Source: Candidatus Peribacteria bacterium (GTDB lineage: Bacteria; Patescibacteriota; Gracilibacteria; Peribacterales; Peribacteraceae). Taken from it: a stretch of DNA of 64,000 nucleotides. The position numbers and the translations under genes were made by a program. This document shows positions 23,201-55,767 of this stretch, one piece after another. The notes under the pieces are model-generated. The model was not told the origin of the DNA and did no database searches. It saw nothing but the letters and a program-made list of their open reading frames with translations. Position 1 is the stretch's first letter. Each line of letters starts with the position of its first letter. The stretch spans positions 1 to 64,000 of the forward strand of contig JBEPVF010000002.1 in NCBI GenBank assembly GCA_041691135.1, read 5' to 3'.

Positions 23201-26132
23201 ATGCTGCGTTTCCAGAATTTCTTCGCGTCCCGGACCCGCACCTTGGCTTCCCGCAAGGGTCGCGGTTTCAAACCGCAATCCCTTGAGGGCCTCGAGGACC
23301 GCCTGGTCCTGAGCGCTGTCGTCACCGACAAGTTCCTGGTCACCAGCAGCGGCCCAGCGCCGAAGCAACTGCAGACCGGAGCCGCCGGCATCACGGCGAT
23401 CTCCATCACGACCAAACTAACCAGCGGTTCTGCAGGCGCCGTCCGAGACATTGTGCTTCTGCCCACCGTGGGCAGTCGGACGCTCCGAGATTCCATCACG
23501 ACGGCCCACCCTCCTGGTGGACTATAACAACGACGGCCGAGGCGACCTCGAAATCGCCAGAGCAGTTCCGAACGGAACGGGGAAACTGGACTTCAAGGTC
23601 TACCAAACCCTGTTCAATTACCCTGGCTTCCAAAGCCTCCGCTTCGTGACCACGATTGATGTCCGCCCTGATGCAAAACCCGGTCCTTTTGGGCTGAGGT
23701 TCTCGTCGGTGCAGTTCACCGATGCGGTCGCCAAGCAGGTAAATTCGAAGAACGTCACGTTCAAGCTCGGCAACCCCACGGTCAATGCGATCGTCGGACA
23801 GGCCAGGCTCAACACAGCCACTGCTGCTCCCAGCAACTTGGTCGCCGGCGACGTGGGTACCGAGACGATCTACATTCAGAATATCGGTTCCGCACCAGCA
23901 ACGAACGTGTACGTCACCGACACTTTGCCGGCGAACTTCCAGTACGCCGGTGGAGATGGAAACACATACGCAAACGGAACTGTTACCACACCGACCTTCT
24001 CACTCGCCCCTGGCGAGCAGACGGCGGTACGTATCAGCATCCGAGCCAACCCAGATGCCAGCAACGGAACGATCGTGTCCAACACGGCGGAGGTCCATTA
24101 CGGATCGACGACGATCACGACGCCAACCACGCTGACAAGCATCGTCCAGCCGACGGTGTCGGTAGCGGCCACTGGGCCGTCCATTGTCACCGCTGGGCGC
24201 AATTTCACCGCAACGGTCACCGTTATCAATACGAGCCCCCTTGCGGTCGACGGCGTCTACATCACCGACTTGCTTCCTGGGTACATGACGTACACAGGCG
24301 GCGACGGTAACAGCTCAGACGGCGACCGCCTCGTCACGAGTCCTACCTTCTCGCTCCTCCCGGGCCAGAGGAAGGATATCCTGATTAGTCTGGCCACCGA
24401 TCCGTCCACTCCGGACGGAACAGTTCTCTCGAACACTCCTGTCGCCCACGCGGGCGTCAACGTGTTCAATGCTCCAACGGTCCGTACTTTGGTCACCAAC
24501 CCGGTGATCTACACGGCGGACATTGTCAGCAAGGCCGGTCCATCAACGGACACGGCCGTCAGCAACCAGAAAAACCTCACCCTCTATCGTTTCGAGGCTC
24601 GCGCCTCGACCGAGAACGGTGACGCCATCGACGAGCTACTCACGTCCGTCAGCTTCAGAGCGACGGCCGGCACGCTCTTCAACGGCACGAGCTATACCTT
24701 GTGGATGGATACTGACGCGGATAACCGCGTCGACACGATCGTCCAAAGAGACGTCACTCCCGAAGACGGATTCGTGACATTCAACCACATCATCGGCGGC
24801 GGCATCGTGCTGCCTGCCGACACAAGCATCCGATTCGAGGTGCACGCCGACATCGCATCTAGTGCGACGGGTCACCTCCAGATCAACCTGATTGACGCCA
24901 AGCTCGAGACCGTGGCCGACGGCAAGGCCATCGATCCGAACAACGTCACGATCATCGCAACCCCCGGCACAGACTACACGATCGCCAAGAGCGGTAGTCT
25001 GTACGTGGTCAAGGACTCAACACCGGTCCGCGGTGGGTACGCTCTTCTGGGCGAACGCACCGATCCGGTGGCGCGCTTCCTGTTCACATCGATCATCGAC
25101 GCGTCGGACGTGACCAAAATTCACCTGACCGCTGTCGGCGAAGGGGTCCGTTCGGTCGATCACTTCGAGCTGTACTTCGACGCAGCAACGACCCCGTTCG
25201 CCGTCGCGACCATCGGTGCAACTGGCACAGACGATGTCCCCCTACTGTGGCACGGCGTGCCGGCCACCACGTTCACGGCCCGCCTGAACAGTCAGCAGCT
25301 CGTCGTCCCCAAGGGGACTACTGTCACCGTTATCGTCCGTGCCCGACTGAAGTCGGATTCGGAAGGCGGCGAGTCTGGTAAATTTTTCCAGATCGTGCTG
25401 GATGGTGGCAGCGCTCTGAGCGAAGTTACTGGCGCGGGTGCTATCCATGCCCGTAGTCTCACTTCACAGAACAATCTCAACGGCAACAACGGCGATCCCC
25501 TCGCCACCGGCGAAGTGTTCATCGGGACCAATTCGGTCAGCCTCAACCAGGACATCATGTTCGGGATGTCCATGACGACGGGGTCTCTGATCACGTCCGT
25601 CACCAACGCAGACCCCAACGCCAACGGCACCTCGGTGCCTGTTGGCAGCCACAGGGCGGTCGGTCAATACAAGATTTCGACCGCCCCGACCAACAACGAC
25701 AAGGATGGCCTGAACAAGACGATCATCGACTCGCTGTCGTTCGTCGTCAACACCTCGAACGTCGCCTTCAGCGCCGGAAGCTTCCGGCTCTATAACAAGG
25801 CCAACTCGGCTCAATGGGTGAATTGCACCATCGTCAACATGGACGGAACAGCCGTCACTGGCGATACCGCAAGCGGATCGTTCCGCGTCGTCGTCACCGG
25901 GCTCGACGATAAGCCCATCGACACGCGGATCGACGGAGGCACAGATGCGACTTTCGTGCTGGAAGCCGAAGTCCTCGACACCAAGATCGACCCGGCGCGG
26001 AGTTCATCGCTTCAGGTCGCCCTCGAGACCGACAAGGTCGAGTGGACCGACCGGGACATCACCACGGCAGTCACGTTCACCGGCCTCGGCCTGTCCGACT
26101 CGCTGATCAAGTCAACCAAGTACACGGCCTGA
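23201..26132 (+). CDS. Large surface protein with LEDR export motif and two DUF11 domains; split by a +1 frameshift
   Basis: SLEGLEDRLVLS motif in ORF 23201-23527; removing one C at 23505-23507 joins it to ORF 23451-26132; NIGSAPATNVYVTDTLP DUF11 repeats. Confidence 0.8.
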
Positions 26133-26162
26133 GAGCCACTGAGAAAGCCAACGCAAAGGACC

Positions 26163-26195
26163 ACTCCCCTGCCGCAATGCGGCAGGGGAGTTTTT
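26163..26195 (+). terminator. Intrinsic terminator
   Basis: actcccctgccgca-a-tgcggcaggggagt plus TTTT. Confidence 0.85.
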
Positions 26196-26228
26196 AAAAA
26201 GAAAAAACTACAAGATATAATTCTGCAC

Positions 26229-26260
26229 GTCGAATTTCGTGCTTCGGATTTCGAATTTAT
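26229..26260. repeat. 7-nt-period array (TCGAATT)
   Basis: tcgaatt tcgtgct tcggatt tcgaatt directly after the pyrE stop. Confidence 0.7.
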
Positions 26261-26899
26261 TCACAATGTCTTCTGCCAATCCTCCGGGCTCTCCACAAAC
26301 TCCGCCACCATCCGTGCTTCACTCGGCGTGATGCGGCCATCATTCTGCGCCGCCTCGAGCAACGTGGTGATGCTTGTAAGCGGATGAAACTTCACGCTCT
26401 CGGTCTGTGCTGATTCGGTCGCTTTGAGGAATTCGTATGTGAAGATAGCGACGATATCTGTGACCGAACATTTTCCTTCTTCGCGCAGCGCTTGCACCGT
26501 CGAGACCGAACTGCCGCCGGTCGAAATCAGATCTTCGATCACCACTACGTGTCGGCCTTCGGGCAGATCGCCTTCGATACGTTTTTTGGCGCCATGCTCT
26601 TTGGCTTTGGCGCGCACGTACACAAACGGCAAATCCATGCGGTCCGCGACCAGCGCCGCCCAGCCAATAGCCGCCGTCGCCGTGCCGGCGATCACATCCG
26701 GCTCCACATGCAGCGCTTTCACGCGCGATACCAATGCATCGGCGATAAACGACCGCGCCTCGGGGTGGCTGTAGATCATCCGGTTATCACAGTAGATGGG
26801 CGATTTAATCCCGCTGGTCCACGTAAAAGGATCGTTGGGTGACAGTTTGACCGCACCGATTGAAAGCAGGAATTCCGCGACGCGTTGTCCGTGAGGCAT
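26261..26899 (-). CDS. pyrE: Orotate phosphoribosyltransferase
   Basis: FTWTSGIKSPIYCDNR, VYVR.KAKEHG, VVIEDLISTGGS. Confidence 0.96.
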   Translation of the reverse strand: MPHGQRVAEFLLSIGAVKLSPNDPFTWTSGIKSPIYCDNRMIYSHPEARSFIADALVSRVKALHVEPDVIAGTATAAIGWAALVADRMDLPFVYVRAKAKEHGAKKRIEGDLPEGRHVVVIEDLISTGGSSVSTVQALREEGKCSVTDIVAIFTYEFLKATESAQTESVKFHPLTSITTLLEAAQNDGRITPSEARMVAEFVESPEDWQKTL

Positions 26900-26980
26900 G
26901 ACTGAAGCATAGCAAAAGCCCAACAGACTTCAATATCCTTGAACTATTGATTGAATCACGAATAACGTACACTACTCCTG

Positions 26981-27664
26981 ATGCTTCCCCCTGATCACGA
27001 AGAAGAACTCCACCGGCTGACTCAGATTTTCCTGGAGGAAAATTCGAAGATAAACCTCTCGGCCCTGCGCACAGAAGAGCAATGTTGGAACGGCAACATT
27101 CTCGACTCGCTCGCGTTCCTCGATCTGCTCCCAAAGCTTTCGACCAATCAACGCGTTAAAATTCTGGACATGGGAACCGGCGGCGGCTTTCCGTTGTTGC
27201 CACTTGCCATCTGCTTGCCGGACGCACAGTTGGTCGGCCTCGACAGTACGCAGAAAAAGATCGATGCCGTGCAACGCATTATCGATCCCATGAAAATAAG
27301 AAACGCGCAGCTGATCGCAGGGCGCGCCGAAGAGATTGGTCATCATCCGCACTATCGAGAGCAGTTCGACATCGTCACCTCGCGTGCGGTGGCCGAGATC
27401 AACGTGTTGCTTGAGTACTGCAGTCCGTTCGTCAAACCGGGCGGCACTATCGTCCTCTGGAAAAGCCTGACCGTCGAACAGGAACTGGAAGAATCGAAGC
27501 AGGCGCAAGTGCAACTCTATGTACCTTTCAGCGAGAGCTACCGCTATACATTGCCCGGCGACTGGGGCGAACGTCAGTTACTCGTCTTTCGCAAAGGTTT
27601 GTCGCCACTGCCAAAAAAATTCCCGCGTGATGTGGGAGTGCCGAAGAAAGACCCGCTCAAATGA
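26981..27664 (+). CDS. rsmG: 16S rRNA m7G527 methyltransferase
   Basis: ILDSL, DMGTGGGFP, GRAEE, REQFD.VTSRAVA. Confidence 0.94.
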   Translation: MLPPDHEEELHRLTQIFLEENSKINLSALRTEEQCWNGNILDSLAFLDLLPKLSTNQRVKILDMGTGGGFPLLPLAICLPDAQLVGLDSTQKKIDAVQRIIDPMKIRNAQLIAGRAEEIGHHPHYREQFDIVTSRAVAEINVLLEYCSPFVKPGGTIVLWKSLTVEQELEESKQAQVQLYVPFSESYRYTLPGDWGERQLLVFRKGLSPLPKKFPRDVGVPKKDPLK

Positions 27665-27750
27665 ATGTAAAATGTTCAATGTATAATGAACAATGGAGGC
27701 TGTTGCCTTTTAAAGCATTGTCCATTGTCTATTCTTCATTGTACATTCAT
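27660..27750. repeat. Inverted 7-nt-period array (AATGTAA-type)
   Basis: aatgtaa aatgttc aatgtat aatgaac aatg ... cattgtc cattgtc tattctt cattgta cattc. Confidence 0.85.
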
Positions 27751-27754
27751 CCCT

Positions 27755-28348
27755 GTGCCCAAGCCCTACACCCCCAACGACAAATGGAGCCAGCGCGCCG
27801 CCGCGGAGGGCTTTCGTGCGCGATCGGTGTACAAACTGCAGGAGCTCGATGCGCGCTTCCGGCTGCTGAAGCCGGGCATGACGCTCATCGATTGCGGTGC
27901 CGCTCCCGGCAGTTGGCTGCAGTATGTTTCCATCAAGATTGGACCGAAGGGAAAAGCCGTCGGCATCGATCTGACAGAGATCGAACCGGTGGCTGATAAC
28001 GTTCATCTGTATCAAGCCGACATGACGGATATGGCGGCCATTCAGAAAATCCTTGCGAACGAAAACATCACTAGCGTTGATGTGGTGCTCTCGGATATCG
28101 CACCGTCGACCAGCGGCGTGAAAGACGTGGATCAATGGCGATCCATCGAACTCAGCCAGGCAGTACTGGCATTGGCAGGCACGGTTTTAAAACCTCATGG
28201 CAAATGCGTGATGAAGGTATTTCGCGGCGCGGACTTCGACGAGTTTCTGCGTGATATAAAACGATTATGGAAGAACGTGCGAGTCGTCACTGTCAAAGCA
28301 ACCAGAGACCGGAGCAGAGAAGTGTATGTGGTGTGTGAGAAAAATTGA
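27755..28348 (+). CDS. rlmE: 23S rRNA Um2552 methyltransferase
   Basis: FRARSVYKL.E, DCGAAPGSW, VLSDIAP, KVFRG, SREVY; GTG start. Confidence 0.94.
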   Translation: MPKPYTPNDKWSQRAAAEGFRARSVYKLQELDARFRLLKPGMTLIDCGAAPGSWLQYVSIKIGPKGKAVGIDLTEIEPVADNVHLYQADMTDMAAIQKILANENITSVDVVLSDIAPSTSGVKDVDQWRSIELSQAVLALAGTVLKPHGKCVMKVFRGADFDEFLRDIKRLWKNVRVVTVKATRDRSREVYVVCEKN

Positions 28349-28382
28349 GCAGGTTCATTTTTAATTCTCAATTCTCAATTTC
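28339..28382. repeat. 7-nt-period array (AATTCTC)
   Basis: aaaattgag ... ttttaattctcaattctcaattt. Confidence 0.6.
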
Positions 28383-28407
28383 GTCCCGGGCTGATACACT
28401 TTCGACC

Positions 28408-29166: not shown

Positions 29167-29215
29167 GACAGGCCTGTAGCGGTGAGACTGTCACTTGCTT
29201 TGCGTATTTATGTTT

Positions 29216-29246
29216 GACTAACGACTACAGACTAAAGACTATAGAC
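29216..29246. repeat. 7-nt-period array (GACTACA)
   Basis: gactaac gactaca gactaaa gactata gac. Confidence 0.75.
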
Positions 29247-29262
29247 GCATCCCCTCTCGCTC

Positions 29263-30306: not shown

Positions 30307-30372
30307 TAGGCTGTCTAGAGATTAGGCACTCAGAAAATTGAATAGACACTGAAAGGTGCATAGATTGAAGGG

Positions 30373-31152: not shown

Positions 31153-31302
31153 GGCAAAAAGTAAGCACGGCCATTCATTTTCTTGCTTGAGTGATAGATT
31201 CGTTCAGAATCTGCTCCCTCAAGAGGATTTCTTCCATTCAATTCTATCTCTACGGTATCTCGCTAGCCTTTTATAGGCTATGATCCAAAATCTTCACCAT
31301 CT

Positions 31303-35252: not shown

Positions 35253-35254
35253 GA

Positions 35255-43619: not shown

Positions 43620-44240
43620 TCAGATGCCGAGCAACTGTCCCGGCTCGTCGACGATCACATCCGGCTTCTTGCGCTCAAGTGCCGAACGAGAATTGAGTCC
43701 CCAGGTGACGGCCACCGATACGATGCCGATCTTCTTGGCAGCGATCACATCGCGCAGTTCGTCGCCCATGTACAGCGTGGTCGCCGGCTCGAGACGGTGA
43801 AGACGCAACATACCTCGCAAGATGCGATGCTTGCCCAGCAGCCCATCGGCACTGCGGATGTCCTCGAAGATGAGCAGATCATGCCGATGCAAAAATGCTT
43901 CGACGTTCTCGAGTGAGTTCGATGTGAGAATCATGAGTCGATCCCCGCGACGGTGTAATTCCACCAGCACCTCGCGCATCGCCGGCACCACGCCGAGTGA
44001 ATCGATATTGGCATGCAGGAGAGATCGGCCCTTGACCAACAGGAACGGTAAACGTCGGAACGGAATGCCAAGATCGCGCATGATGCCGCGGGTCGTCTTG
44101 CCGCGTAATCGCTCCTCGTCACCCGGCTCAATCGGGCGACCGCCGAGCTGCGGCGCGAAACGGTTATACAGCGCGATAATCTCGGGGAGACTGTCGGCGA
44201 TCGTGCCGTCGAAGTCGAAAATAAAAGTACGACGTGGCAT
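43620..44240 (-). CDS. HAD-superfamily hydrolase
   Basis: FDFDGTIADS, ILTSN, YMGDELRD, VTWG. Confidence 0.92.
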   Translation of the reverse strand: MPRRTFIFDFDGTIADSLPEIIALYNRFAPQLGGRPIEPGDEERLRGKTTRGIMRDLGIPFRRLPFLLVKGRSLLHANIDSLGVVPAMREVLVELHRRGDRLMILTSNSLENVEAFLHRHDLLIFEDIRSADGLLGKHRILRGMLRLHRLEPATTLYMGDELRDVIAAKKIGIVSVAVTWGLNSRSALERKKPDVIVDEPGQLLGI

Positions 44241-44262
44241 GGGTCGAGAGTAACAGAAAAAA

Positions 44263-44392
44263 AGGAAGTGACCGAGGTGGCAGAGGTGACAAAGGTGACC
44301 GACGATTGGAACGCAGAAGATGAAAGAGGAGTACTCCTCATAATCCCATCCTCTGCTTCCTCTGCCACCTCGGTCACCTCTGAATCTTCAGT
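44263..44392. repeat. Gene-less inverted 9-nt-period array (GTGACCGAG-type)
   Basis: gtgaccgag gtggcagag gtgacaaag gtgaccgac ... tctgcttcc tctgccacc tcggtcacc tctgaatct. Confidence 0.85.
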
Positions 44393-45515
44393 GGTGATGC
44401 CCTCCAACCGCCACTACCGGCCTCGTCCCCTCTTTCGTCTTCAGAAGCAGTGCAGCGAACCAAGTGGAAATAGGAACAGCAAGGAGCAGCGTTGCGCTGC
44501 CGACGAGCGTGCGAATGACTTCTTCGGCGATCGCTTCGCCGTTGAGGATCACCCATAGCGGAGAATCGGTATCCGTACTGAACAGGAGCAGCAACGGCAA
44601 TGATGCGCCAACGTACGCCAGAGCGAGGGTATTGATCAGAGACGCAATATGTTCGCGACCCACCGACATACCCGACCGAAAGAGCGCATGCCGGGTGAGT
44701 GTCGGATTGGCCTTGCTGATTTCGTCAACCGACGCCGTCTGCGCCGTCGTCACATCGTCGAGCACACCCAGACAACCGATGATGATGCCACCGAGCAACA
44801 GACCGCGGAAGTTGAGATGGGAAAACTGGCCGAGCTGAAGATATAACGTCTGTTCACTGCCCATGCCGAACAGCCGTCCGAGCGAGACAAAGAGAAGCGC
44901 CACAACAATGGCCAGAACGAGCGTGAGTAACGTACTCAGTAACGCTACCGATGTGCGACGATTGAATCCGTGTGCCAGATACAGCGAGCTGGTGGCAATC
45001 AGACACGAGCCGACAATACTGACGAGCAGCGGACTGTAGCCGGCGATAATCAGCGGAATAATAAGCTTGGCCAATAGCAGGATGCTCACGACGAGACCCA
45101 GAATTGACGAGATACCACGCAATCCACCAAGCACGACCGTCAGACCAAGAAAGAGAAGCAAGGCCCAGCCCATTCCCGGCAACCGGTAGCGCTCTTTGGC
45201 CATGTATTCCACGCTGCCATCGGCGCGGGTGAGCGTATCGACAACGAGCATCTCTCCTTTTTTATACAGCAAATCTTCGCGGTCGCTGATGGCATCGTTT
45301 TCCACGCTGATCGACTTGCCGGCATCCGGCCCGCTCGTCAGGCGAATCGTGAGTTTCTGTACGATACTGGTTTCGCCATCTGCCTCCTGCTGTGTTTGGG
45401 TCGCATCAATCACCTGACCGGTTTGGAATTCTTCCTTTGTCGTCTGCGCCCCAACTGAAAGAGGTATCAGCAGAACAGTGCCCAGCAAAACAGATCCAAC
45501 GATGAATCGACGCAT
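44388..45515 (-). CDS. YibE/F family membrane protein
   Basis: LGVLDDVT, GM.VGREHIAS.INTL.LAY.GASLP, EEVIRTLVGS. Confidence 0.9.
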   Translation of the reverse strand: MRRFIVGSVLLGTVLLIPLSVGAQTTKEEFQTGQVIDATQTQQEADGETSIVQKLTIRLTSGPDAGKSISVENDAISDREDLLYKKGEMLVVDTLTRADGSVEYMAKERYRLPGMGWALLLFLGLTVVLGGLRGISSILGLVVSILLLAKLIIPLIIAGYSPLLVSIVGSCLIATSSLYLAHGFNRRTSVALLSTLLTLVLAIVVALLFVSLGRLFGMGSEQTLYLQLGQFSHLNFRGLLLGGIIIGCLGVLDDVTTAQTASVDEISKANPTLTRHALFRSGMSVGREHIASLINTLALAYVGASLPLLLLFSTDTDSPLWVILNGEAIAEEVIRTLVGSATLLLAVPISTWFAALLLKTKEGTRPVVAVGGHHH

Positions 45516-45684
45516 GAAAGCATCATACTCTCCCTTGATCCTGGCACCACATTTCTTGTGCGTTCTGCGAGGTATCAAAACTGCATTTTTGGTGTAAAAG
45601 GAAAAAGGGAGCCTGTCGTTGTTCCTTATTCTTTTTCTCGCCAACTCAGTCGCATCAATCGCTCCGGCATCGTATGATCCAAGT

Positions 45685-47868
45685 ATGTCCGTCGACACAC
45701 TGGAACTCTCCGGCCTGCTGCACACCCATTTCGGGTACGGGGAATTTCGTCCGCTGCAGGAAGACATTATTCAGCATGTGCTGAGCGGCCACGACAGCCT
45801 GGTGCTGATGCCGACCGGCGGCGGTAAATCGCTGTGCTATCAGCTTCCCGCACTGTGCCTGGATGGCCTCACGCTTGTCGTATCACCGCTTATTTCGCTG
45901 ATGAAGGACCAAGTCGACAGCTTGCGCGCCAACGGGATCGCGGCGGCGTTTCTCAATAGTTCGCTCACCATGATTGAGCAGGCGCATATTCAACAAGAGG
46001 CGGCAAACGGTCAGATTAAGATCCTGTACATCGCACCGGAACGACTGGCGGTGCCGGCATTCCAATCTTTCCTGCAAGACGTGACAGTGAGTCTGATCGC
46101 CATCGACGAAGCGCACTGTATTTCGCAATGGGGACATGATTTTCGTCCCGATTACCGGTTGCTCTCGGGTCTGCGAGCGCACTTCGCCGGCGTGCCCATC
46201 ATCGCCCTTACAGCCACGGCCACCGATCGCGTGCGCACGGATATTTGTGAGCAGCTGAGATTGCAAGCGCCCAAGGTTTTCCTGTCGAGTTTCAACCGGC
46301 CGAACCTCACATACCACGTGGCACCGAAGAAAAATTCGTTCGACACATTGCTCACGCTGCTGCGCAAGCACCCGGATGCATCGGCCATCGTGTACTGCTT
46401 TTCGCGCAAGGACACCGAGTCGCTGGCCGCCGATCTGGTGGCCGAAGGATTCAAGGCCTCGCCCTATCATGCCGGACTCAATGCCGACGTACGCCGTGAG
46501 ACACAGGAGAAGTTCATCCGCGACGAAGTCCCGATCATCACCGCCACCATCGCCTTCGGCATGGGTATCGACAAGCCGGACGTGCGTCTGGTGGTGCACA
46601 TGGACATGCCGGCCACGGTGGAAGGCTATTACCAAGAAACGGGACGCGCCGGCCGCGACGGACTGCCCAGCGATTGCGTCCTCTTGTATTCGGCATGGGA
46701 TCGCAAGAAACACGAATTCTTTATCGGAAGAATCACCGACGACGCAGAACGGGCAAATGCGACCCAGAAGCTCGATCGCATCATGGCCTACTGTGATCAT
46801 CGCCGCTGTCGCCGGCAATTCCTACTGACCTATTTTGATGAGGAATGGACAGATGACAATTGCGAAAGTTGCGATCGTTGTCTGGAAAAAACCGAAGCGT
46901 TCGACGCCACCGAAGTGACGCAGAAAATTCTGTCGGGCGTCCTCAAAACCGGCGGGCGCTTCGGCGCGCAGTACGTGTGTTCCGTCCTGCTCGGCCGCAA
47001 TGAGAAGGCGGTGCGCGAGCGCGGCCACGATCAACTGTCCGTCTTCGGCATCGTGCGCGATTTTTCCGACGCGCAGCTCAAGTTGCTCATGGGATCGCTG
47101 ATTGAACAAGGATTGCTGATGCGCACCGAAGGACAGTATCCCGTCCTACAGGTGACTGAATACGGCATGCAATGGATGCAGGAAGGCAAAGCGATTCAAT
47201 TGGCCCGACCAACGACGAACACCGCATTTTCCAAAACGGATGACCGGCAGATTGTATCGTTCGATCAGGGCTTATTCGGTGAGCTGCGCGCGTTGCGCAA
47301 ATCGCTGGCCGACGAGCGGGGCGTACCGCCGTTCATCATCTTCGGCGATCGTACGTTGCAGGAAATGGCGACGTACATTCCACAGTCACGCGAGAGCATG
47401 GCGCGCATCAGCGGCGTGGGAGACAAGAAGCTGCAGGAATTCGGTACGTTGTTCGCGAATGTAATCAGGCAGTACGCAGCGGATCATCAGCTGTCGGAAA
47501 AACCGATGCCCGCCGGCCTGGTACGGCAGGAACGGCGGCGCGAACGTACGGTAGGCCAGAAAGGCTCCACTTACGACGAGACGAAAAAACTTCTGCAGCA
47601 GAAGGTGCCGCTGGCCGAGATCATGCGGCAACGACAGCTCAGTGAAGGAACGATCGTGCAGCATATCGAACGCCTGGTGCAAGCCGACGAAGAACTTGAT
47701 ATTCACTATCTTCGCCCATCCGACGACGACTACCGCACCATCGTCGATGCATTTCACCTGAAAGGAAGCGGCATTTTGTCGCCCGTATTCTCGCATTTCA
47801 ACGGCCGCTACTCCTACGACATGCTGCGTCTGGTTCGCGCACTCCTGGTATCAGATACCTCAGCATGA
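45685..47868 (+). CDS. recQ: ATP-dependent DNA helicase RecQ
   Basis: MPTGGGKSLCYQLP, DEAHCISQWGHDFRP, QETGRAGRDG; RQC, HRDC and C-terminal HTH. Confidence 0.97.
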   Translation: MSVDTLELSGLLHTHFGYGEFRPLQEDIIQHVLSGHDSLVLMPTGGGKSLCYQLPALCLDGLTLVVSPLISLMKDQVDSLRANGIAAAFLNSSLTMIEQAHIQQEAANGQIKILYIAPERLAVPAFQSFLQDVTVSLIAIDEAHCISQWGHDFRPDYRLLSGLRAHFAGVPIIALTATATDRVRTDICEQLRLQAPKVFLSSFNRPNLTYHVAPKKNSFDTLLTLLRKHPDASAIVYCFSRKDTESLAADLVAEGFKASPYHAGLNADVRRETQEKFIRDEVPIITATIAFGMGIDKPDVRLVVHMDMPATVEGYYQETGRAGRDGLPSDCVLLYSAWDRKKHEFFIGRITDDAERANATQKLDRIMAYCDHRRCRRQFLLTYFDEEWTDDNCESCDRCLEKTEAFDATEVTQKILSGVLKTGGRFGAQYVCSVLLGRNEKAVRERGHDQLSVFGIVRDFSDAQLKLLMGSLIEQGLLMRTEGQYPVLQVTEYGMQWMQEGKAIQLARPTTNTAFSKTDDRQIVSFDQGLFGELRALRKSLADERGVPPFIIFGDRTLQEMATYIPQSRESMARISGVGDKKLQEFGTLFANVIRQYAADHQLSEKPMPAGLVRQERRRERTVGQKGSTYDETKKLLQQKVPLAEIMRQRQLSEGTIVQHIERLVQADEELDIHYLRPSDDDYRTIVDAFHLKGSGILSPVFSHFNGRYSYDMLRLVRALLVSDTSA

Positions 47869-47869
47869 A

Positions 47870-47959
47870 TTAACCGGCCAGAAACATGAAGAGTGCGGCA
47901 ATGACCGCAAAGATGCCGAATGGCCCGCTGAACGAAGTTCGATGTCGATACACGTACAT
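47870..47959 (-). CDS. Possible 29-aa membrane peptide
   Basis: MYVYRHRTSFSGPFGIFAVIAALFMFLAG with a pyrimidine-rich leader. Confidence 0.3.
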   Translation of the reverse strand: MYVYRHRTSFSGPFGIFAVIAALFMFLAG

Positions 47960-48041
47960 ACAAAAGGAGAAGGGATACCTCCTATAACGAACAACCTCAC
48001 TCTGGCTTACGGATTGGAGATGACAATGTTTTAGAAACGAT

Positions 48042-48791
48042 CTACAACTCGATTTTCGAGAACAGGTAACTGCCGAGCGCCAGGAATAAAATCGTGAGCA
48101 CGACAAGGATGCCGCCATCGATGAATATGCCGAAATGACTCTGCCCGAGCAACGCAGCCCGGAGTCCGTCGATGCCGTAACTGAGCGGATCGAGTTTGGC
48201 GATAAACAACAACGTGGGCGGAGCCGTATCCAGCGGGAACAGTGCGCCGGACAAGAAGAATAACGGCATGACGACGAAGTTCATGATCAGCTGGAAGCCC
48301 TGCATGTCCTGCAATTTCGAGGCGATTGCCGTACCGAGCGCCGTGAAGAGCAGCGAGATTAGGAACATAAAAATGATCGCTACTGGCACCATCGCCCAAT
48401 TCTCTGGACGAAATCCGGCGATGAGCGCGATGAGGAACACGATGCCTCCCTGCAGAACCGCAACCGTCGCGCCGCCCAGCGTCCGGCCCAGCATGATGTT
48501 CCAGCGGGAAATGGGAGCGACCAGCATTTCCTTGAGGAAACCGAACTGGCGGTCCCAGATGATTTCGATGCCCGAGAAAATCGCCGTAAACAGAATTGAC
48601 ATCGAGATGATGCCCGGTGCCAGGAACTGCAGGTAGTTACCGCCACCCGCCCGCTCGTAAATGGGTCCCATGCCGAAACCAAGCGCGAACAAGAACAACA
48701 GCGGCTGGCCAAGAGAGCCGACAATTCGCGCACGCGACCGGCCATAGCGCTTGAGTTGCCGGAGCCACAAAATGTAGAGAGTATTCAGCAT
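48042..48791 (-). CDS. ABC-2 type transporter permease
   Basis: FLAPGI, DRQFGFLKEMLVAP, FLSGALFP. Confidence 0.92.
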   Translation of the reverse strand: MLNTLYILWLRQLKRYGRSRARIVGSLGQPLLFLFALGFGMGPIYERAGGGNYLQFLAPGIISMSILFTAIFSGIEIIWDRQFGFLKEMLVAPISRWNIMLGRTLGGATVAVLQGGIVFLIALIAGFRPENWAMVPVAIIFMFLISLLFTALGTAIASKLQDMQGFQLIMNFVVMPLFFLSGALFPLDTAPPTLLFIAKLDPLSYGIDGLRAALLGQSHFGIFIDGGILVVLTILFLALGSYLFSKIEL

Positions 48792-48797
48792 AGAGAA

Positions 48798-49610
48798 TCA
48801 GGAGCGGCGTCCCCACATGCGGCTCATCGTCCGCATATGATCGGTGGCGCTGACTTCTTCGGGACGAATGGCTTTGCCGGTAAGGGTGAGGAATGCGTCT
48901 TCGAGTGACTGCGCATTCGTTTCTTGTTTAAGCGATGCGGGCGTTCCTTGAGCGATGATCTGTCCGTGATCAATGATGGCAACCCGATCGGCAACGCGAT
49001 CCGCTTCTTCCATATAGTGCGTGGTGAAGAAGACGGTAATCCCCTCTTCTTTATTCAGTTTTTTGATGTAGTCCCAAATGTGATTGCGCGTCTGCGGATC
49101 GAGACCGATGGTCGGCTCATCGAGGAAAAAGATTTTCGGATGGTGCAGCAAACCGCGCGCGATCTCGAGTCGGCGCTTCATACCGCCCGAAAATTGCTTC
49201 ACCAGATCGTCGCGTCGGTCATCGAGTTCCACGAACTTGAGCATTTCATCGATGCGCTTGCGCCGCGTGGCCTTGTCGACGCCGTACAAAACGCCATGGA
49301 ATTCCAAATTCTCCCACGCCGTCAGTTCGTCATCGGAACTGGGATCCTGAAACACGATGCCGAACGAACGCCGGGCGCCGGCTTGATCATGCACCGGATC
49401 ATGGCCGTCGAGTTGCATCGTTCCACTGGACGGATGCAACAGCGTCGTGAGCATTTTGATCGTCGTCGTTTTGCCGGCGCCATTGGGCCCCAGAAACGCG
49501 AAGATTTCACCACGCTGCACCGAAAATGACACATCATTCACGGCGGTCAGTTTTCCAAACTGGCGTACCAGATGGTCGACATGGATGATGGGATCAGAAG
49601 CAGCGGACAC
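48798..49610 (-). CDS. ABC transporter ATP-binding protein (DrrA-like)
   Basis: GPNGAGKTT, FSGGMKRRLEIARG, LDEPT.GLDPQ; GTG start 6 nt after TACACT. Confidence 0.92.
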   Translation of the reverse strand: MSAASDPIIHVDHLVRQFGKLTAVNDVSFSVQRGEIFAFLGPNGAGKTTTIKMLTTLLHPSSGTMQLDGHDPVHDQAGARRSFGIVFQDPSSDDELTAWENLEFHGVLYGVDKATRRKRIDEMLKFVELDDRRDDLVKQFSGGMKRRLEIARGLLHHPKIFFLDEPTIGLDPQTRNHIWDYIKKLNKEEGITVFFTTHYMEEADRVADRVAIIDHGQIIAQGTPASLKQETNAQSLEDAFLTLTGKAIRPEEVSATDHMRTMSRMWGRRS

Positions 49611-49713
49611 GAAGAGAGTGTAAAACAGAAACATGGCATGCCGCCATGGAAAGTACTGGATAATTCCTCTAGTCTTTCGACTGCACAGTTTACTCTCTTT
49701 TCCTTCTCTACTT

Positions 49714-50211
49714 ATGAAGCACACTCCCCTGATCATCTCGTTGAGTATGTCGCTCCTACTCCTGACTGCCTGTGGCTCATCGAACACCAATGTCACCCCT
49801 GCAACATCGGACACAGCCGCAAACCCGCCTCTGACCAATACGGCAAATCCTCCGCCGACCAACAACGCACCCCTCACGCCCGGCGCAACAGTGAACGCCT
49901 TTTACGCCGCATGGCTGACATATTCCGGTAACCCACTCACGGACCACATCTACAGTGTAAGTCCGTACATTACCGCATCGCTTAGACAATCACTGGATGC
50001 CCAAGCGCAATCACCATCAGGCCTTGATCCAGTCCTCTGCGCGCAGACCAAACCATCCGCGTTGACCACCTCGCTCGTCTCCGGAACGGACGGCGGCCTC
50101 GATAGCATAGACGTCACCGAAATTTTCGGCGCCTCCACCACCGTCGTACGAGTCGGCGGAGCATTGGAAGGCGACGTGTGGAAGATCAATACGATTGAGT
50201 GCGCGAAGTAA
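49714..50211 (+). CDS. Putative lipoprotein
   Basis: LLLTAC lipobox, Pro/Thr/Asn linker, DPVLCAQ...WKI..IEC. Confidence 0.75.
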   Translation: MKHTPLIISLSMSLLLLTACGSSNTNVTPATSDTAANPPLTNTANPPPTNNAPLTPGATVNAFYAAWLTYSGNPLTDHIYSVSPYITASLRQSLDAQAQSPSGLDPVLCAQTKPSALTTSLVSGTDGGLDSIDVTEIFGASTTVVRVGGALEGDVWKINTIECAK

Positions 50212-50332
50212 GATTCTGTTTCGTATTTTCGCATCAAATAGATCTAAATTTGAGCTGCGTTGTAGCAGGTTTTGTCGGTGGAACTGATGAGGACTTTGCA
50301 GTGGGGGCATTTCATAATAGAAATAGAAAAAA

Positions 50333-50722
50333 TTACTTAAGAGGTAATTCGGGGAAAACTTTAAGTAAATCTGCCACGTACTTTTGAAGTTCTTCATCAC
50401 CTATATAACCAAATTCACCACCTCTATTGAGTTCGTTTGATTCATACATGGACAACCATGAAATAAATGCATCACATTCATTTGCAGATTTAGGTGAAAG
50501 AGCAAGATAATCTAAAGAAAGAGAATCGGTATTTACGAAAATATCTCTCTTTATTTTTTTTAAATCTGTCCCAGTAATTTTACCATCGATATGTTGTTTC
50601 AGTTGATCCTTAAATAATTGAAGATCGCTAGTTAATTTTTTTTCGAAATAAATTTTTTGTTCATTAAGGAGACTTCCCTCAAGATATTTTTTTAGCGCCA
50701 AATCATCATAATTATTAATCAT
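50333..50722 (-). CDS. Putative immunity protein
   Basis: Small AT-rich ORF overlapping the toxin stop by 4 nt (ATGA). Confidence 0.65.
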   Translation of the reverse strand: MINNYDDLALKKYLEGSLLNEQKIYFEKKLTSDLQLFKDQLKQHIDGKITGTDLKKIKRDIFVNTDSLSLDYLALSPKSANECDAFISWLSMYESNELNRGGEFGYIGDEELQKYVADLLKVFPELPLK

Positions 50723-53700
50723 GATTGTTTTTTGAAAACAGTTACTGTGATAATTCTACCAGTATATCCATCTACAACTACTCTTAAATTTTTGACAGTA
50801 GAAGTCCCATTTTTTCTATAAAACGAAAAATTTGAAATCTCAAATCTATATCTCAACTCATCTGTGGTAGTATCTATAGACTTTACTCCATTTTTCAAGA
50901 CATCTTCCACAAAAGATGGATAAACACCATCGTCTTTCATTGAAAGAATCGCATGTTTTGAATATTGGTAATTACCTATTGTCACTTCATTTGTTGAATA
51001 GTTTGTAATTTTTTTAGCAATGGTTGAACGAACATCCTCGATAGTATCAACTTCCACAGCTAGGCTTTCTACCGCACCTTTACCCGCTTTAGGAACCGTA
51101 GACATTTCATCTTTAATCAGTACTTCTGCCGCATCTTTCCCTCCTGTTTTTAAAGCCGCAGCAATCTTAGTAATAAAAGGAATGGCAGAAGCTTCACCTT
51201 TTGTAAGAACAACAGCCAAAGTTTTAACAACTATCGGACTCAAAACTTCCGCAGTTGCAACACTTATAAGAAGTTGACTTGTATTTTCAGGTGTCATTAG
51301 TTTCACACCAGCTACAAAACTCTGCATGCTCGAATAGAGTGCAAACTCCGCAAAATGAGCTGTACGCTCTACTGCTGAAAGTTTGTCGTTATTCACTGCC
51401 TGCCTCTCTTTGTCCATTCTAGTTTGCAGGAATGTAATCATATTATTTAATGTTTTGTTCACTGGATCAAAAATATCGGTCTGCCAACTGTTTGGCATAG
51501 TGACAATTACATCAATCAAACGTTTACCAACTTCATACGGCAGGCTTGAAATGCCCAAAGTTGATGACAACTGGATGGCTGCTTGAACTCCAATAATGGC
51601 GGACGTTGGACTCGATTCAGCACATTTATTCAGTAGGTCTTGCTGCGACTTATATTGATTTACTGCGTTAGTATAACCCAAAGGAGCTGCTTGATTATCT
51701 TCTAAGCTATATGTCTTTCCCGCATTCATAACAATCTTGAGATCCAACGATTTCTCGGGCCCTCCAATATTCAGCCCACTTCCCGCTACGGCCGCACGGC
51801 TATTGATGCCCTGTTTCGCCAACATCGATCGTAGATCGAGTGACGCATATTGCGGATCAAAATCTTGTTGTCCCGCCATCGGATACACCACATTCATATG
51901 CATTTCAGCAGTCATTGTCCCACCGACTTTTCCGACTTGGCCGACTGAATCGCCAGCAGCTATCTGGCGTCCCAAAATATCTGGATTGATCGATTGAAGA
52001 TGAACGAACTCCACAAAGAATACGATTGTGTCTTTCGAAACTGGATCTGGAATTTCGTGTCGCATAACCACCCTACCTTCGGCTTCATCAATATCGACGA
52101 CGATGCCGTCGAGCATGGCACGCACTGTCTTGCCTTTGTCGACATTGAGCCCGCCTTGCAGATTTATATCAACCGCATTGCTCTCAATTCCCACATGCCC
52201 TGGCGATCCCTCTTGAATGAACCATGTGCCATCAGCTTTATCCACTGGCAAATGACCCTGAAGTGCAGCCACGATAAGCGCCTGAATCCGTCCATTTTCG
52301 CTCGCCACTTGCTCGATTGAATCCGGTCCTGTTTCGGCCTTTACCAATGAAGCCACCAACTTTGGCGTCTCCACCACTGTCTCCAGCGGCAGGTTCATCA
52401 GTCGCGCATACAGGGCGCGTTGCTTCTCCTGCGTATCGGCCATCACCAGATCCAAGGCGAGTTGGCGCAATTCGGCGTTATCGGTGTAGCGGCCGATCTT
52501 GTCGTACAGGCGTGCTGTATTGATCTGTTGCTCGCGTGTGACGGGCGTCACTATATCTTTCATCACCAAGTTGCCATCTTTATCCACCACGCGGAGCTGC
52601 TTTGGCTGCGGCTGTGTAGTGCGACTTGTGTAGAGGAACGGCTGACCGGATGCCGGGACCACTTCGATGCTCACGCTGTCGCCAATCTGGCCGATGGTCA
52701 CAATTGCCCTGAGCGCTTGTTTTTGCATGCCACTCATCACGCCAGTGAATGTCTTTTGAACCGGATCGCTGGCCGTACCTGTGGGTCCGACGTGGACGCG
52801 CACCATCACGGACGTACCTTGCAGGCCGTCGTTTTTGATCGAGAACAACGCACCGAGTGTGGTACCGGCAACCGCGGCGACCGGACGCGTGCTCACCATT
52901 GCGGGCACATCCGTCCAGCCTTCCTGACCACCCGACGAAGCGATCTGCCACTGCAGAAAATCGGCCGATAATTTGGATGCGTCTGACGGCATCACATCGG
53001 CTTCGCTGGGGCCTTGGGCAGTGAACGTTGGCATCTCGATCGGCGCTTTGCCGTTCATGCCCACTACCAAGTGCCGCGGCGCGCCCGGGAAAATGACAAC
53101 AGTCTGCGCTGTGAGCTGGCGATACCATTCTTTCGGCAACGGCTGCAAATCGCCGCTCATCGTATTTTGATTCACGTAATACAGCTGATTGATGTTGACT
53201 GATCCGCTGCCGCGCATGTTCACCCGCAACAGCTGGTACTGCGACGGATCCGGATTTTCGACGCCTTCAAGCAAACTGCCGTTGACCCACACATCTTGTC
53301 CGCCTGTACGATACAGCACGCCTTTTTTACGACCGGATTCGATGTAGTTGTAGTCGCCTTGTTCCCACTGTGGAGCACTGACAATGCCTACATCGCGGCT
53401 TGTTTCGGGACTCAGCACCGCAAAAGGTGCTGCGATTTGCGTGCCGTTGCTTTCGAGCGACAGACCGCCGACAAACAGCGCCCCTGATTTCTGACTGTGT
53501 GTGAACACAACTCCCGACAGACCCGCCGGCTGCTTCAGATCGAACACGCCACTCGACGGAATCGCGACCGATGATATTTCTTTGCCACCGCAATACACAT
53601 GCGCGGTGATGACATCGCCGGCACGGTCCGATGCGATGCGGCCCTGCACACGCGTGACGAGCGTTTGCGTAGTGGCAAAATCCAACGTGGCCGCCGATCC

Positions 53701-55767
53701 TTCCATGCGCTGCACGTCGGCGATATTGCTCCACGTACCGGCAGGTGTGATCGGTCGCGTATCGATACGCTCGATGCCGTAGGCGGCGCCCGGATCGGTG
53801 TACACATCAATGCGCGTGATATTGGCATCGATGTGCACCAATCCTGATCCGTCCACCGGAATGAGTCGATTGTTACCGCTGCTGTCGAGTGCGTATACAC
53901 GCGCCGTTCCCTGATTGCTCAGTCGTGTCACCGATACGGCAGACACGTACCGCGCACCGGTCCAGAACATCGAGATACGTCCTTCACCTTTCTTGGTCGT
54001 CTTGAAAACGCCATGGTCGTAGCCTGTTTCGGTCGAGATCACCGCACCACCCTGCTCGGCCAGAAAGCGATACGGCGCGTAGCTGGAGTACGCAAAGTCG
54101 CGTATGCCGTTGTCAGCTTCCACCGTCACGGTTCCGAATCCGGGTATCTGCACTGTCCGACTCATATCGCTCGTTACCTGATTCGGCGCCAATCCAATGG
54201 ATTTTTCGAGCGCGGGCAGCGCGGCTGCCGACGTATTGATCGTGCCGAGTGCCCGGGCGGCAGCGGAACCCGTCACATGCTGCTCCACTGCATCGGAGGT
54301 GAGTGTGCCGCGGAGCGCAGAGAGCGATAGAGAGCCGCCGAGATGATTCAGCGGTTGGGATAGCAGGCGCTGTGATGCACTGCCCGATACCGGACCGGCA
54401 AGCGTGACTGTCTCGTACCGGTCGACATCCGCTTCCAGAGACTCGAGCACTTGTTCCTGTTGCAGTACCGTTTCGTATTTCACCGTGAGCGATCCCTGCA
54501 CCGAAGCGAGCACATCATGATCTTTGGGTACAGCCTTGAAGAATGCGGTGTTCGTTGTTTCAAGATCGCCAGTCGCCGTCCGCATCATCATTAATGCGGT
54601 GCGCGCCGGTGTTCCGGTTGCGTAGCGGTTCAACATGCCATCGGATGTGTGCACCTTGGCACGCACCAACAGTGCGGCGATATCGTTCTGCAGAGATGCC
54701 AGCGCCAACCCGATCACCTGGTCCTGCTCGGAAGAAGCGGGTACCGGCACATCCGCCGCCGGTACCGCGCCCCATAGTCTCTGCGGTACGGTAAGCGTGA
54801 AGAGTTTGCCCGTCTGATCACCGCCGACCGCGCCTATGAGTAGGTGATTTTTAGGCGAGGGGTGGATGACTGACGCGAACTGCGGCGCCTGAAGCGTTTC
54901 GGGCTGTTGCTTCATCGGACTCTGCCCCATCGTCGTTGCATCAAAAAGGGTGATTTTGCCCTCGCGATCGGTGACATATAGGACATCGCCGATTGGCGAA
55001 AAAGTGACATCATTGATCTGCGCACCGGGGAGCGGTTGCACGACGCAGGCGCCGCTCTGTACGTTGATGACGCCGACATTCCCTACCTGATCGCCATACA
55101 CTATGAACTTGCCGCGCGGATCGACTGCGAACGAGACGACATGCTGTTGAACGGAGAAGCTCTGGCTGGCACCGGTGCCCTTGTCATAGACATTGATCGT
55201 CCGGTCGAGATAGGAAGCAACTTTCTTGCCATCGGGGAAGAAATACACGCCGTCTCCCGCTGAGGCAGTGACAGTCTGGCTCCCCGTGTCGAGGTCGAGC
55301 AGGAGAACCTGAGAACTGGCCAAGGCGAAGGCGACGGTCTTGCCATCCGGAGAAACTTCCATGCGTGCGCCCCAGTCGGGCAGGGAGAATTGTTTGAGCT
55401 GCTTACCGGAAACGGCATCCCATACGCGGCAAGTGCCGTCCTGAGCAAAGGAGATAATTTTGGTACCGGTAGGATCGTAGCTGCAGCGCCAGACTTGGGC
55501 AGTGTGGCCAGAGAGAGTGGTAAGAGGAGCGCCGGTTTTCCCATCGCGAATAATGATCGTATTCTGACCATAGGTAGTGGTAGCCAAATGCTGACCATCG
55601 GGACTGAGCGCAAGATCGACGAAGGATTCGGGCCCACGGTTGATATCCGCGTCATCCTGGGGTGTGAGATGCGGAATGGCAGCCAGCGTCGCATCAAAGG
55701 AGGCCAAGGAAGGCAGCTGTCTGTCCTCTAAGTACTCGACGCGTGGACCAGTAGAAAAACGAGGCAT
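50719..55767 (-). CDS. Polymorphic-toxin-like protein: LEDR motif, WD40 propeller, M23-like domain, C-terminal DUF4258/BECR-like RNase tip
   Basis: VEYLEDRQLPS; LSGHTAQV...DGTCRVWD; VRAMLDG.V...FVHL...GDSVGQVG; YSKHAI.SM...GV....VEDVLKNG...LRVVVD...GRIITV. Confidence 0.8.
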   Translation of the reverse strand: MPRFSTGPRVEYLEDRQLPSLASFDATLAAIPHLTPQDDADINRGPESFVDLALSPDGQHLATTTYGQNTIIIRDGKTGAPLTTLSGHTAQVWRCSYDPTGTKIISFAQDGTCRVWDAVSGKQLKQFSLPDWGARMEVSPDGKTVAFALASSQVLLLDLDTGSQTVTASAGDGVYFFPDGKKVASYLDRTINVYDKGTGASQSFSVQQHVVSFAVDPRGKFIVYGDQVGNVGVINVQSGACVVQPLPGAQINDVTFSPIGDVLYVTDREGKITLFDATTMGQSPMKQQPETLQAPQFASVIHPSPKNHLLIGAVGGDQTGKLFTLTVPQRLWGAVPAADVPVPASSEQDQVIGLALASLQNDIAALLVRAKVHTSDGMLNRYATGTPARTALMMMRTATGDLETTNTAFFKAVPKDHDVLASVQGSLTVKYETVLQQEQVLESLEADVDRYETVTLAGPVSGSASQRLLSQPLNHLGGSLSLSALRGTLTSDAVEQHVTGSAAARALGTINTSAAALPALEKSIGLAPNQVTSDMSRTVQIPGFGTVTVEADNGIRDFAYSSYAPYRFLAEQGGAVISTETGYDHGVFKTTKKGEGRISMFWTGARYVSAVSVTRLSNQGTARVYALDSSGNNRLIPVDGSGLVHIDANITRIDVYTDPGAAYGIERIDTRPITPAGTWSNIADVQRMEGSAATLDFATTQTLVTRVQGRIASDRAGDVITAHVYCGGKEISSVAIPSSGVFDLKQPAGLSGVVFTHSQKSGALFVGGLSLESNGTQIAAPFAVLSPETSRDVGIVSAPQWEQGDYNYIESGRKKGVLYRTGGQDVWVNGSLLEGVENPDPSQYQLLRVNMRGSGSVNINQLYYVNQNTMSGDLQPLPKEWYRQLTAQTVVIFPGAPRHLVVGMNGKAPIEMPTFTAQGPSEADVMPSDASKLSADFLQWQIASSGGQEGWTDVPAMVSTRPVAAVAGTTLGALFSIKNDGLQGTSVMVRVHVGPTGTASDPVQKTFTGVMSGMQKQALRAIVTIGQIGDSVSIEVVPASGQPFLYTSRTTQPQPKQLRVVDKDGNLVMKDIVTPVTREQQINTARLYDKIGRYTDNAELRQLALDLVMADTQEKQRALYARLMNLPLETVVETPKLVASLVKAETGPDSIEQVASENGRIQALIVAALQGHLPVDKADGTWFIQEGSPGHVGIESNAVDINLQGGLNVDKGKTVRAMLDGIVVDIDEAEGRVVMRHEIPDPVSKDTIVFFVEFVHLQSINPDILGRQIAAGDSVGQVGKVGGTMTAEMHMNVVYPMAGQQDFDPQYASLDLRSMLAKQGINSRAAVAGSGLNIGGPEKSLDLKIVMNAGKTYSLEDNQAAPLGYTNAVNQYKSQQDLLNKCAESSPTSAIIGVQAAIQLSSTLGISSLPYEVGKRLIDVIVTMPNSWQTDIFDPVNKTLNNMITFLQTRMDKERQAVNNDKLSAVERTAHFAEFALYSSMQSFVAGVKLMTPENTSQLLISVATAEVLSPIVVKTLAVVLTKGEASAIPFITKIAAALKTGGKDAAEVLIKDEMSTVPKAGKGAVESLAVEVDTIEDVRSTIAKKITNYSTNEVTIGNYQYSKHAILSMKDDGVYPSFVEDVLKNGVKSIDTTTDELRYRFEISNFSFYRKNGTSTVKNLRVVVDGYTGRIITVTVFKKQS

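Follow-up and report, generated by a model that had tools for sequence, protein, structure and literature searches.

Many of the largest proteins known from bacteria are headed by a short N-terminal tag that is captured by two curated models, PF07595 (Planc_extracel) and NF012209 (LEPR-XLL), and whose function has only been proposed, according to the available part of one report (PMC8567305). The same text gives RRLxxExLExRxLLA as the motif of Rhodopirellula and LxLExLExRxxP as a variant of Tuwongella immobilis, terms PF07595 a "Planctomycetes-specific signal peptide" with reference to Studholme et al. (2004), and counts 52 motif proteins in Tuwongella, including 8 of its 10 longest, 8 of the 20 that were detected being confined to the sodium dodecyl sulphate fraction (PMC8567305). 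LEPR-XLL is described, in the accessible portions of three further reports, as part of giant proteins in Vibrio, Limnohabitans and the epibiont Chlorochromatium (PMC10868602, PMC9611531, bioRxiv 10.64898/2026.03.19.712371). Here we analyse the first 64 kb (64,000 nucleotides, hereafter the window) of the 274.7 kb contig JBEPVF010000002.1 from the Candidatus Peribacteria bacterium assembly GCA_041691135.1, in which two genes, called gene 1 (plus strand) and gene 2 (minus strand), start with peptides that are, as judged by their core and position, divergent copies of this cross-phylum PF07595/NF012209 tag. What our analysis adds is the occurrence of the tag in a family of the Candidate Phyla Radiation (CPR), where tag and signal peptide alternate at the start of the paralogues of one surface-protein family, and this alternation provides comparative evidence for the tag standing in for an export signal. 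We therefore favour as probable, from comparison of sequences, that the tag serves as an export or sorting label in place of the classical signal peptide and that it has been inherited within the Peribacteraceae.

The evidence that carries this reading comes from the family to which the body of gene 1 belongs. Residues ~365-903 of this protein define a family matched in 58 of the 60 other Peribacteraceae genomes that made up our family sample (one genome per genus), mostly at 30-45% identity, and its C-terminal domain of ~530 residues has 10 matches in the window's genome and up to 14 in relatives. Members of ~1450 residues possess a signal peptide, followed in many of them by an SLH region (35.9 bits in the one tested), and the tag-bearing homologues of gene 1 carry DUF11, all of which is consistent with what is probably an S-layer or surface-protein family of the Peribacteraceae. 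A 2016 paper on Peribacteria genomes already mentions, in its available text, large extracellular proteins, S-layer genes, sortase and type IV pili, most of these proteins having signal peptides. Among the N-termini of the gene 1 family that could be inspected, 17 show a classical signal peptide and six the tag (gene 1 itself and the proteins G444:C13, G422:C39, G418:C7, G451:C12 and G439:C4), while four were unreadable owing to contig ends or unclear starts. In homologous surface proteins one and the same position is occupied by the tag in some and by a signal peptide in others, an alternation among paralogues suggesting that the tag replaces the export signal. The two kinds of N-terminus also differ in hydropathy, measured as the maximum 12-residue Kyte-Doolittle mean: the 17 signal-peptide paralogues have a median of 2.34 (range 1.91-3.26) and 40 tag proteins one of 1.19 (range 0.54-2.14), gene 1 reaching 1.68 and gene 2 reaching 1.36. 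This agrees with the sequence-only reading of the window, made before our analysis without any database search, which had seen no hydrophobic Sec signal ahead of either protein. Other modules found in tag proteins are DUF11 (3 out of 36), Laminin_G_3 (2), lipase (2) and WD40 (5), and those of the window's genome additionally carry LysM and an M23-like segment; the setting typical of PF07595, i.e. large proteins predicted to be extracellular and lacking an ordinary signal peptide, is thus encountered here as well. For one tag protein of 300 residues (G443:C8; L211, P0127) the precomputed Pfam list gives RTX repeats (PF00353), which was unexpected for a lineage without a TolC-type gene.

Across the relatives the tag has a recurrent build, consisting of a basic stretch, the core [RK]xLx[FVL]ExLE[DEPKS]Rx[LVM][LPM][STA] and, in many copies, a proline some five residues downstream. 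In our alignment of 39 collected N-termini (A3) the E, L, E and R columns show conservation of 90% or more; basic residues and a leucine come before them, LL[SA]xxP frequently comes after, and the global alignment of 36 otherwise unrelated full-length tag proteins yields the consensus RxLxxExLExRxLL, which is the string quoted for Rhodopirellula in the available part of the report cited above (PMC8567305). When scanned singly, 23 of the 39 N-termini match PF07595 at E<=1 (best 8.2e-7), this being the only Pfam family matched by more than one of them, and NF012209 is matched by eight at the same threshold (best 1.6e-6). Two copies from relatives even pass the gathering cut-off of PF07595 (25.5 bits): that of a gene 1-family protein of 996 residues in G451 (25.7 bits) and that of G335 (26 bits). 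The likeness to Planc_extracel and LEPR-XLL which the sequence-only reading had noticed in the two window peptides is thereby borne out, since the core and the N-terminal position are shared and most of the collected N-termini match PF07595. The proline that recurs about five residues past the conserved arginine (LL[SA]xxP, often LLSADP or LLAANP) is found in copies from both the Peribacteraceae and the Pseudomonadota, and it could mark a processing site.

A test that avoids circularity was made with a leave-out profile, built from 35 N-termini all taken from other genomes and searched against the 33,650 six-frame segments of the window's genome. It ranked first a third copy of the tag, located at the head of a paralogue of gene 2 (E 4.5e-6), followed by gene 2 (E 2.1e-4) and gene 1 (E 1.2e-3), the next segment having an E of 2 and the best match of a reversed-sequence control one of 0.37. 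Both peptides singled out by the sequence-only reading are therefore real, lie at the extreme N-terminus of their open reading frames (ORFs) and exceed what chance would yield according to this profile. The third copy and a weaker fourth one, on a protein with LysM, were found by a loose pattern scan of the genome, and both lie on the same contig outside the window. The bare pattern E.LE.R proved unspecific, nine of its matches falling within the N-terminal 80 residues of ORFs and 12 in other positions, and its counts were dropped as evidence.

Several described systems invite comparison. The tag shares with Planc_extracel its place at the extreme N-terminus after basic residues, the ExLExR core, its association with the largest of the predicted surface proteins and the missing hydrophobic core; it departs from the Planctomycete case in that it occurs here in a CPR bacterium which has no TolC-type gene, in that genomes have 1-4 copies instead of the 52 counted in Tuwongella, and in that the two copies of the window are below the PF07595 cut-off or unmatched. 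With LEPR-XLL it has in common an N-terminal element of ~24 residues with an LE.R..LL core, and NF012209 gives the only curated-model signal of gene 1. However, the LEPR-XLL giants of Vibrio, Limnohabitans and Chlorochromatium, as far as the accessible parts of the reports on them describe them, measure ~5000-36,000 residues and are linked to type I secretion, whereas the proteins considered here are mostly of ~300-2000 residues. Other N-terminal motifs mark subsets of large surface proteins too. YSIRK, ESPR and KxYKxGKxW (the last of the accessory Sec pathway) occur in extended signal peptides of large surface proteins, where the motif precedes a normal hydrophobic core; the tag resembles them in being an N-terminal motif on a subset of large surface proteins and differs in that no hydrophobic core is present.

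The spread of the tag was followed with profiles of growing size. PF07595 alone reached its cut-off in a single case (in G335) when searched against 400 other genomes of the phylum, and it gave sub-threshold matches at the starts of long ORFs within the Peribacteraceae. A first profile of 10 rows (A1) found matches in 29 of the 60 other Peribacteraceae genomes at E<=0.1, and of the 26 new loci that were read, 21 had a long ORF with the motif near its beginning, two had variants and three were unconfirmed. Applied to the phylum sample at a threshold of E<=0.01, the A1 profile matched 2 of 11 Peribacteraceae genomes and 4 of 389 others, two of these four being training rows from the family f30, one G254 and one a match in a 36-codon frame. 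The 39-row profile A3 was positive in 37 of the 60 other Peribacteraceae genomes at E<=0.01, with one to four copies each; 24 of these genomes had supplied training rows and match by construction, and 13 had not. The open frames at its 37 strongest matches encode 128-2123 residues. At E<=0.001, A3 had no match in 33 other families of the class, represented by 135 genomes, as against 6 of 15 Peribacteraceae in that sample, and it had no match in G105, the representative of the window's own genus. Outside the Peribacteraceae the tag is present in the CPR family f30, whose member G049 has an AtpD closest (76-78%) to loci titled Saccharimonadales or Saccharibacteria. The possibility that the motif is common across CPR regardless of host, which the sequence-only reading had named as fatal to its own proposal, is thus not what we find. 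Beyond CPR, the CPR-derived profile detected N-terminal copies in Pseudomonadota (5 of 201 genomes); two of these copies head open frames of 7672 and 5224 residues, and several have the continuation LLSADP. A3 gave no match in five genomes of other phyla that had been reached through loci. In a collection of 5.8 billion proteins A3 returned 15 matches, a search that scored only 8000 word-sharing candidates and gives no usable taxonomic spread; ten came from genomes in hand or from entries named Peribacteria or Peregrinibacteria, and the other five, one named Planctomycetota and four without taxon name, all begin with the same kind of string. The tag is, on these profile matches, best described as a cross-phylum element which in CPR is a trait of one family with rare cases elsewhere. 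The literature that we searched, with subscription journals and supplementary tables outside its range, holds no report of the tag in Peribacteria or other CPR.

The identity of the organism was examined through AtpD, encoded on the same contig, which is 84-78% identical to proteins of metagenome-assembled genomes titled Candidatus Peribacteria, Peribacterales or Peribacteraceae, the remoter matches being other Patescibacteria. Gene families typical of Peribacteraceae are present on the contig, and neither AtpD identity nor the family-wide distribution of the gene 1 body gave any sign of a chimera. The organism is a CPR bacterium, Candidatus Peribacteria, and not a Planctomycete, in agreement with the sequence-only reading, which had called it a non-Planctomycete and had proposed a check of contig taxonomy that here returns Peribacterales. 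The assembly comprises 1.74 Mb in 35 contigs, with estimated completeness of 92% and contamination of 3.8%.

The features of the two loci and of the two further copies are collected in Table 1.

Table 1. Tag-bearing loci, their parts and the evidence for each (window positions coincide with contig positions; C2, the same contig outside the window)
Feature	Position	Strand	Evidence
Gene 1, N-terminal ORF of 108 residues with basic stretch and tag	23201..23527	+	Translation; Shine-Dalgarno-like box
Gene 1, 21-residue string quoted in the sequence-only reading (residues 18-38)	23252-23314	+	Translation
Gene 1, tag core E29-S38	23285-23314	+	Translation
Gene 1, body, open frame of 903 codons, in another frame than the tag ORF	23421..26132	+	DUF11 repeats and C-terminal domain of ~530 residues
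Gene 2, modular large protein of 1682 residues with the tag at its head	50719..55767	-	Stored gene call, ATG at 55767
Gene 2, tag (quoted 13-residue string, residues 8-20; core 11-19), ExLExRxxP variant	55708..55746	-	Translation
Gene 2, predicted WD40 beta-propeller	54919..55629	-	PF00400, 56.7 bits, and many beta-propeller families
Gene 2, middle region (residues 452-1140)	52348..54414	-	Common to tag-bearing large proteins of other Peribacteraceae genera
Gene 2, M23 peptidase-like segment	51886..52146	-	PF01551, 21.4-23.7 bits, below the cut-off of 28.7
Gene 2, C-terminal ~75 residues, weakly DUF4258-like, candidate toxin module	50737..50964	-	PF14076, 15.7 bits
ORF of 129 residues with start overlapping the gene 2 stop, candidate immunity protein	50333..50722	-	Position only
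Third copy, paralogue of gene 2 of 1252 residues	C2 222704-226462	-	Pattern scan; leave-out profile
Weaker fourth copy, LysM protein of 1412 residues, possible tag bearer	C2 240501-244739		Loose pattern scan

The sequence-only reading had spoken of the motif on two large proteins, which holds for gene 2 and, in the case of gene 1, only across a frameshift, the ORF that bears the motif being short. This ORF is preceded by a Shine-Dalgarno-like GAGAGGA box 8 nt upstream of its ATG, and the switch to the frame of the body, which scores 41.5 bits with DUF11 and 33.8 bits with TIGR01451, falls within 23421-23527. In the homologues of G444 and G422 tag and body lie in a single ORF. An identical sequence of the frameshift region occurs in a Logan contig (depth 18.8, from one run holding this stretch); as that run is possibly the source of the DNA and thus not independent, the finding excludes an error of one assembler and not an artefact of the consensus.

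By length, gene 2 ranks fifth among the ORFs of the genome. Its start is that of the stored gene call (P0002) and has an equivalent in the paralogue on the same contig. With an alternative ATG at 55827 the protein would be 20 residues longer, and both starts lack a clear ribosome-binding site. Residues 1-336 are 66% identical to the paralogue, so that tag and WD40 head are common to the two proteins, and their C-terminal parts are unrelated. A homologue search with the first 420 residues, covering proteins of 936-2979 residues, gave close matches only to gene 2 itself and to this paralogue, the others being generic WD40 proteins of 22-40% identity, the few with a taxon name coming from several phyla. 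The middle region is 34% identical over 698 residues to a protein of G426 and 27% over 621 residues to one of G229, with weaker matches to tag proteins of G425 and G438. At the very end the match to PF14076 has an E of 0.019 and spans profile positions 1-69 of 71 (cut-off 25 bits), and the GC content falls to 0.399 in 50001-52000, compared with ~0.55 on both sides. A single other protein, a distant one (E 3.2e-4), was matched by the C-terminal end among 1.84 billion representatives, and the look-alikes of this end in the atlas score at most 0.86 and serve as leads only. The small ORF that follows matched no family in our scans with hidden Markov models (HMMs).

In polymorphic toxins such as LXG, Rhs and contact-dependent inhibition (CDI) proteins, a conserved N-terminal trafficking part is joined to an exchangeable C-terminal toxin, which is followed by an immunity gene. 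Gene 2 and its paralogue resemble them in their common head and unrelated C-termini, and gene 2 does so in addition by its low-GC 3' end, its weak DUF4258 match and the small overlapping ORF; a difference is that no known trafficking domain or matching secretion system was found. The layout thus looks like that of a polymorphic toxin, for which we infer the assignment of the toxin and immunity parts.

Further observations concern the surroundings of these genes. Directly downstream of the gene 2 cassette, an ATP-binding cassette (ABC) transporter ATPase (48042-49877, minus strand; PF00005, 124.5 bits) is encoded next to an ORF of 249 residues that is permease-like by eye only, and within 44000-62000 this stretch alone has a long nucleotide match to G105 (69% identity). 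Immediately upstream of the gene 2 paralogue, and on its strand, lies a gene (C2:226662-227696, minus) that resembles a PilT-type ATPase by eye only, and the ORF immediately downstream of the paralogue (C2 222177-222704) carries a lipoprotein signal (LPAM_1, 23.3 bits).

The sequence-only reading had gone on to propose that the motif was acquired from a Planctomycete host, or mimics one so that host machinery handles the proteins of a symbiont, which would reveal the host to be a Planctomycete. It is true that the motif fits the consensus strings published for Planctomycetes, at least those given in the available part of that source (PMC8567305), that PF07595 is the sole Pfam family repeatedly matched by the collected N-termini, and that the patchy spread in CPR, with one family of its class and rare cases elsewhere, would fit an ancient transfer of the system. 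Nevertheless, within the Peribacteraceae the tag is a widespread element, present in 37 of the 60 other genomes and seated on native families such as that of the gene 1 body, and among the proteins of the length range searched the gene 2 WD40 head has close relatives only in its own genome. The inference of a Planctomycete host is unsupported because the tag also occurs in Pseudomonadota and, as reported in the accessible texts, in Vibrio, Limnohabitans and Chlorochromatium, to which the Saccharimonadales-like CPR family adds a further lineage. We consider this explanation very improbable, and the tempting conclusion about the host is best removed, the tag being uninformative on host identity. 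A chance likeness of short strings rich in leucine and glutamate, devoid of function, might be invoked on the grounds that the bare six-residue pattern is common in the genome (21 matches) and that the scores of the curated HMMs on the window copies are at the level of control genomes. Such a coincidence is already contradicted, and in our opinion has next to no probability, in view of the conservation in the alignment across dozens of genera, the spread in the family, the constantly N-terminal position on long ORFs and the leave-out profile, which sets three copies apart from the rest of the genome.

Two more explanations retain a role at the N-terminus and differ in what this role would be. 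The main rival to an export label, which we regard as rather unlikely, sees in the tag an element for N-terminal processing, retention or anchoring of proteins that are translocated by virtue of another feature. The authors describing the tag-headed giants of Pseudomonadota and Chlorochromatium link them, in the parts of their reports available, to type I secretion, which uses a C-terminal signal; the RTX repeats listed for the 300-residue protein of G443 point in the same direction, and the conserved proline after the core would be a possible site of processing. This explanation has to face the fact that the tag sits exactly at the place of the signal peptide in paralogues, that tag proteins show no other recognisable signal, that the end of gene 2 is toxin-like and not of RTX type, and that the genome has no TolC-type or C39-type gene. 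Alternatively, the tag could be an extension of the n-region of an ordinary Sec signal peptide, comparable to YSIRK or ESPR, with the weakly hydrophobic stretch behind the arginine serving as a short core. Some copies do have 7-9 mostly hydrophobic residues past the arginine, and one paper groups, in its available text, Planc_extracel with YSIRK, twin-arginine translocation (TAT) and ESPR sequences as signal peptides. However, just one of the 40 tag proteins reaches the lowest hydropathy seen in the 17 signal-peptide paralogues, and polar or acidic residues follow the core in many copies, which makes this alternative improbable.

Our preferred reading, the tag as an export or sorting label, would imply a route that bypasses the ordinary Sec recognition of a hydrophobic core. 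Its cargo, proteins with other domains of extracellular function, would comprise the DUF11 surface protein of gene 1, from an S-layer-related family, the WD40-headed modular proteins of gene 2 and its paralogue, one of which combines an M23-like segment of peptidoglycan-hydrolase type with a swapped toxin-like C-terminus and a small ORF behind it, and, as a possible third kind, the LysM protein; gene 2 would act as a polymorphic-toxin-like effector. As to the machinery, neither the TolC/OEP type (PF02321) nor Peptidase_C39 (PF03412) was matched in the window's genome, which is 92% complete, and HlyD_3-like segments are present in four ORFs. The absence of matches to TolC-type and C39-type genes makes a classical type I route unlikely. 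It can be speculated, with considerably more reserve than for the label itself, that the Peribacteraceae, having no outer-membrane factor, use the LE.R tag for a dedicated route which needs no hydrophobic core and which exports wall-attacking and toxin-like effectors together with surface proteins, possibly onto or into host cells; we hold this to be a tentative possibility. Were such a route to exist, the recogniser of the tag would have to lie within a very small gene set, that of genomes of ~0.7-1.7 Mb, and could be found by comparing tag-positive with tag-negative genera. The system is small and phylogenetically patchy, the tag being present in 37 and absent in 23 of the 60 other genera, and therefore an analysis of co-occurrence could name the machinery.

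A number of results weigh against the tag being an export label or against parts of that proposal. The curated models do not recognise the window copies: PF07595 had no match to gene 1 or gene 2 at E<=10, even with the N-termini excised, and NF012209 (cut-off 17 bits) gave gene 1 a score of 11.4 bits, or 12.8 with the excised N-terminal piece of 47 residues, and gene 2 no match at E<=10, so that the scan with both HMMs which the sequence-only reading had proposed as a check came out, taken formally, as an absence of matches. For the third copy, PF07595 scored 10.9 bits in the whole-genome scan and 12.7 bits on the excised piece. Equally weak scores were obtained in control genomes when these models were run over whole genomes, and such matches were dropped as support. 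The LysM protein was missed by the leave-out profile and is only possible as a tag bearer. Gene 1, with its frameshift reproduced in a second assembly, may be a pseudogene. No conserved neighbour gene emerged within ~1.5 kb of the 37 tag loci scanned, the tag proteins alone being alike. The toxin label of gene 2 derives from a sub-threshold match to DUF4258 and from gene order, and WD40 propellers in bacteria are usually cytoplasmic. Finally, the export role of the motif is itself a proposal in the literature, as stated in the available part of the report on Planctomycetes (PMC8567305).

Some minor observations relate to the genome as a whole and to the end of the window. The same-genus representative G105 has a genome of ~1.0 Mb, compared with 1.74 Mb for that of the window, and contamination, estimated at 3.8%, may be part of the cause of this excess; on other contigs (e.g. 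C6) some long ORFs have N-termini that resemble, by eye, those of proteins from other phyla. Synteny with G105 was uninformative, being limited to three short matches of 68-72% identity on different contigs. Close to the end of the window (60944-63559, minus strand) a sigma-70 family protein of 871 residues is encoded, which has an N-terminal extension of ~500 residues and a C-terminus weakly resembling the C-terminal domain of the RNA polymerase alpha subunit (18.4 bits). Homologues of this sigma-70 paralogue over residues ~320-857 occur in only a few Peribacteraceae genomes, and most of its matches are to the housekeeping sigma factor of ~500 residues, at ~40% identity.

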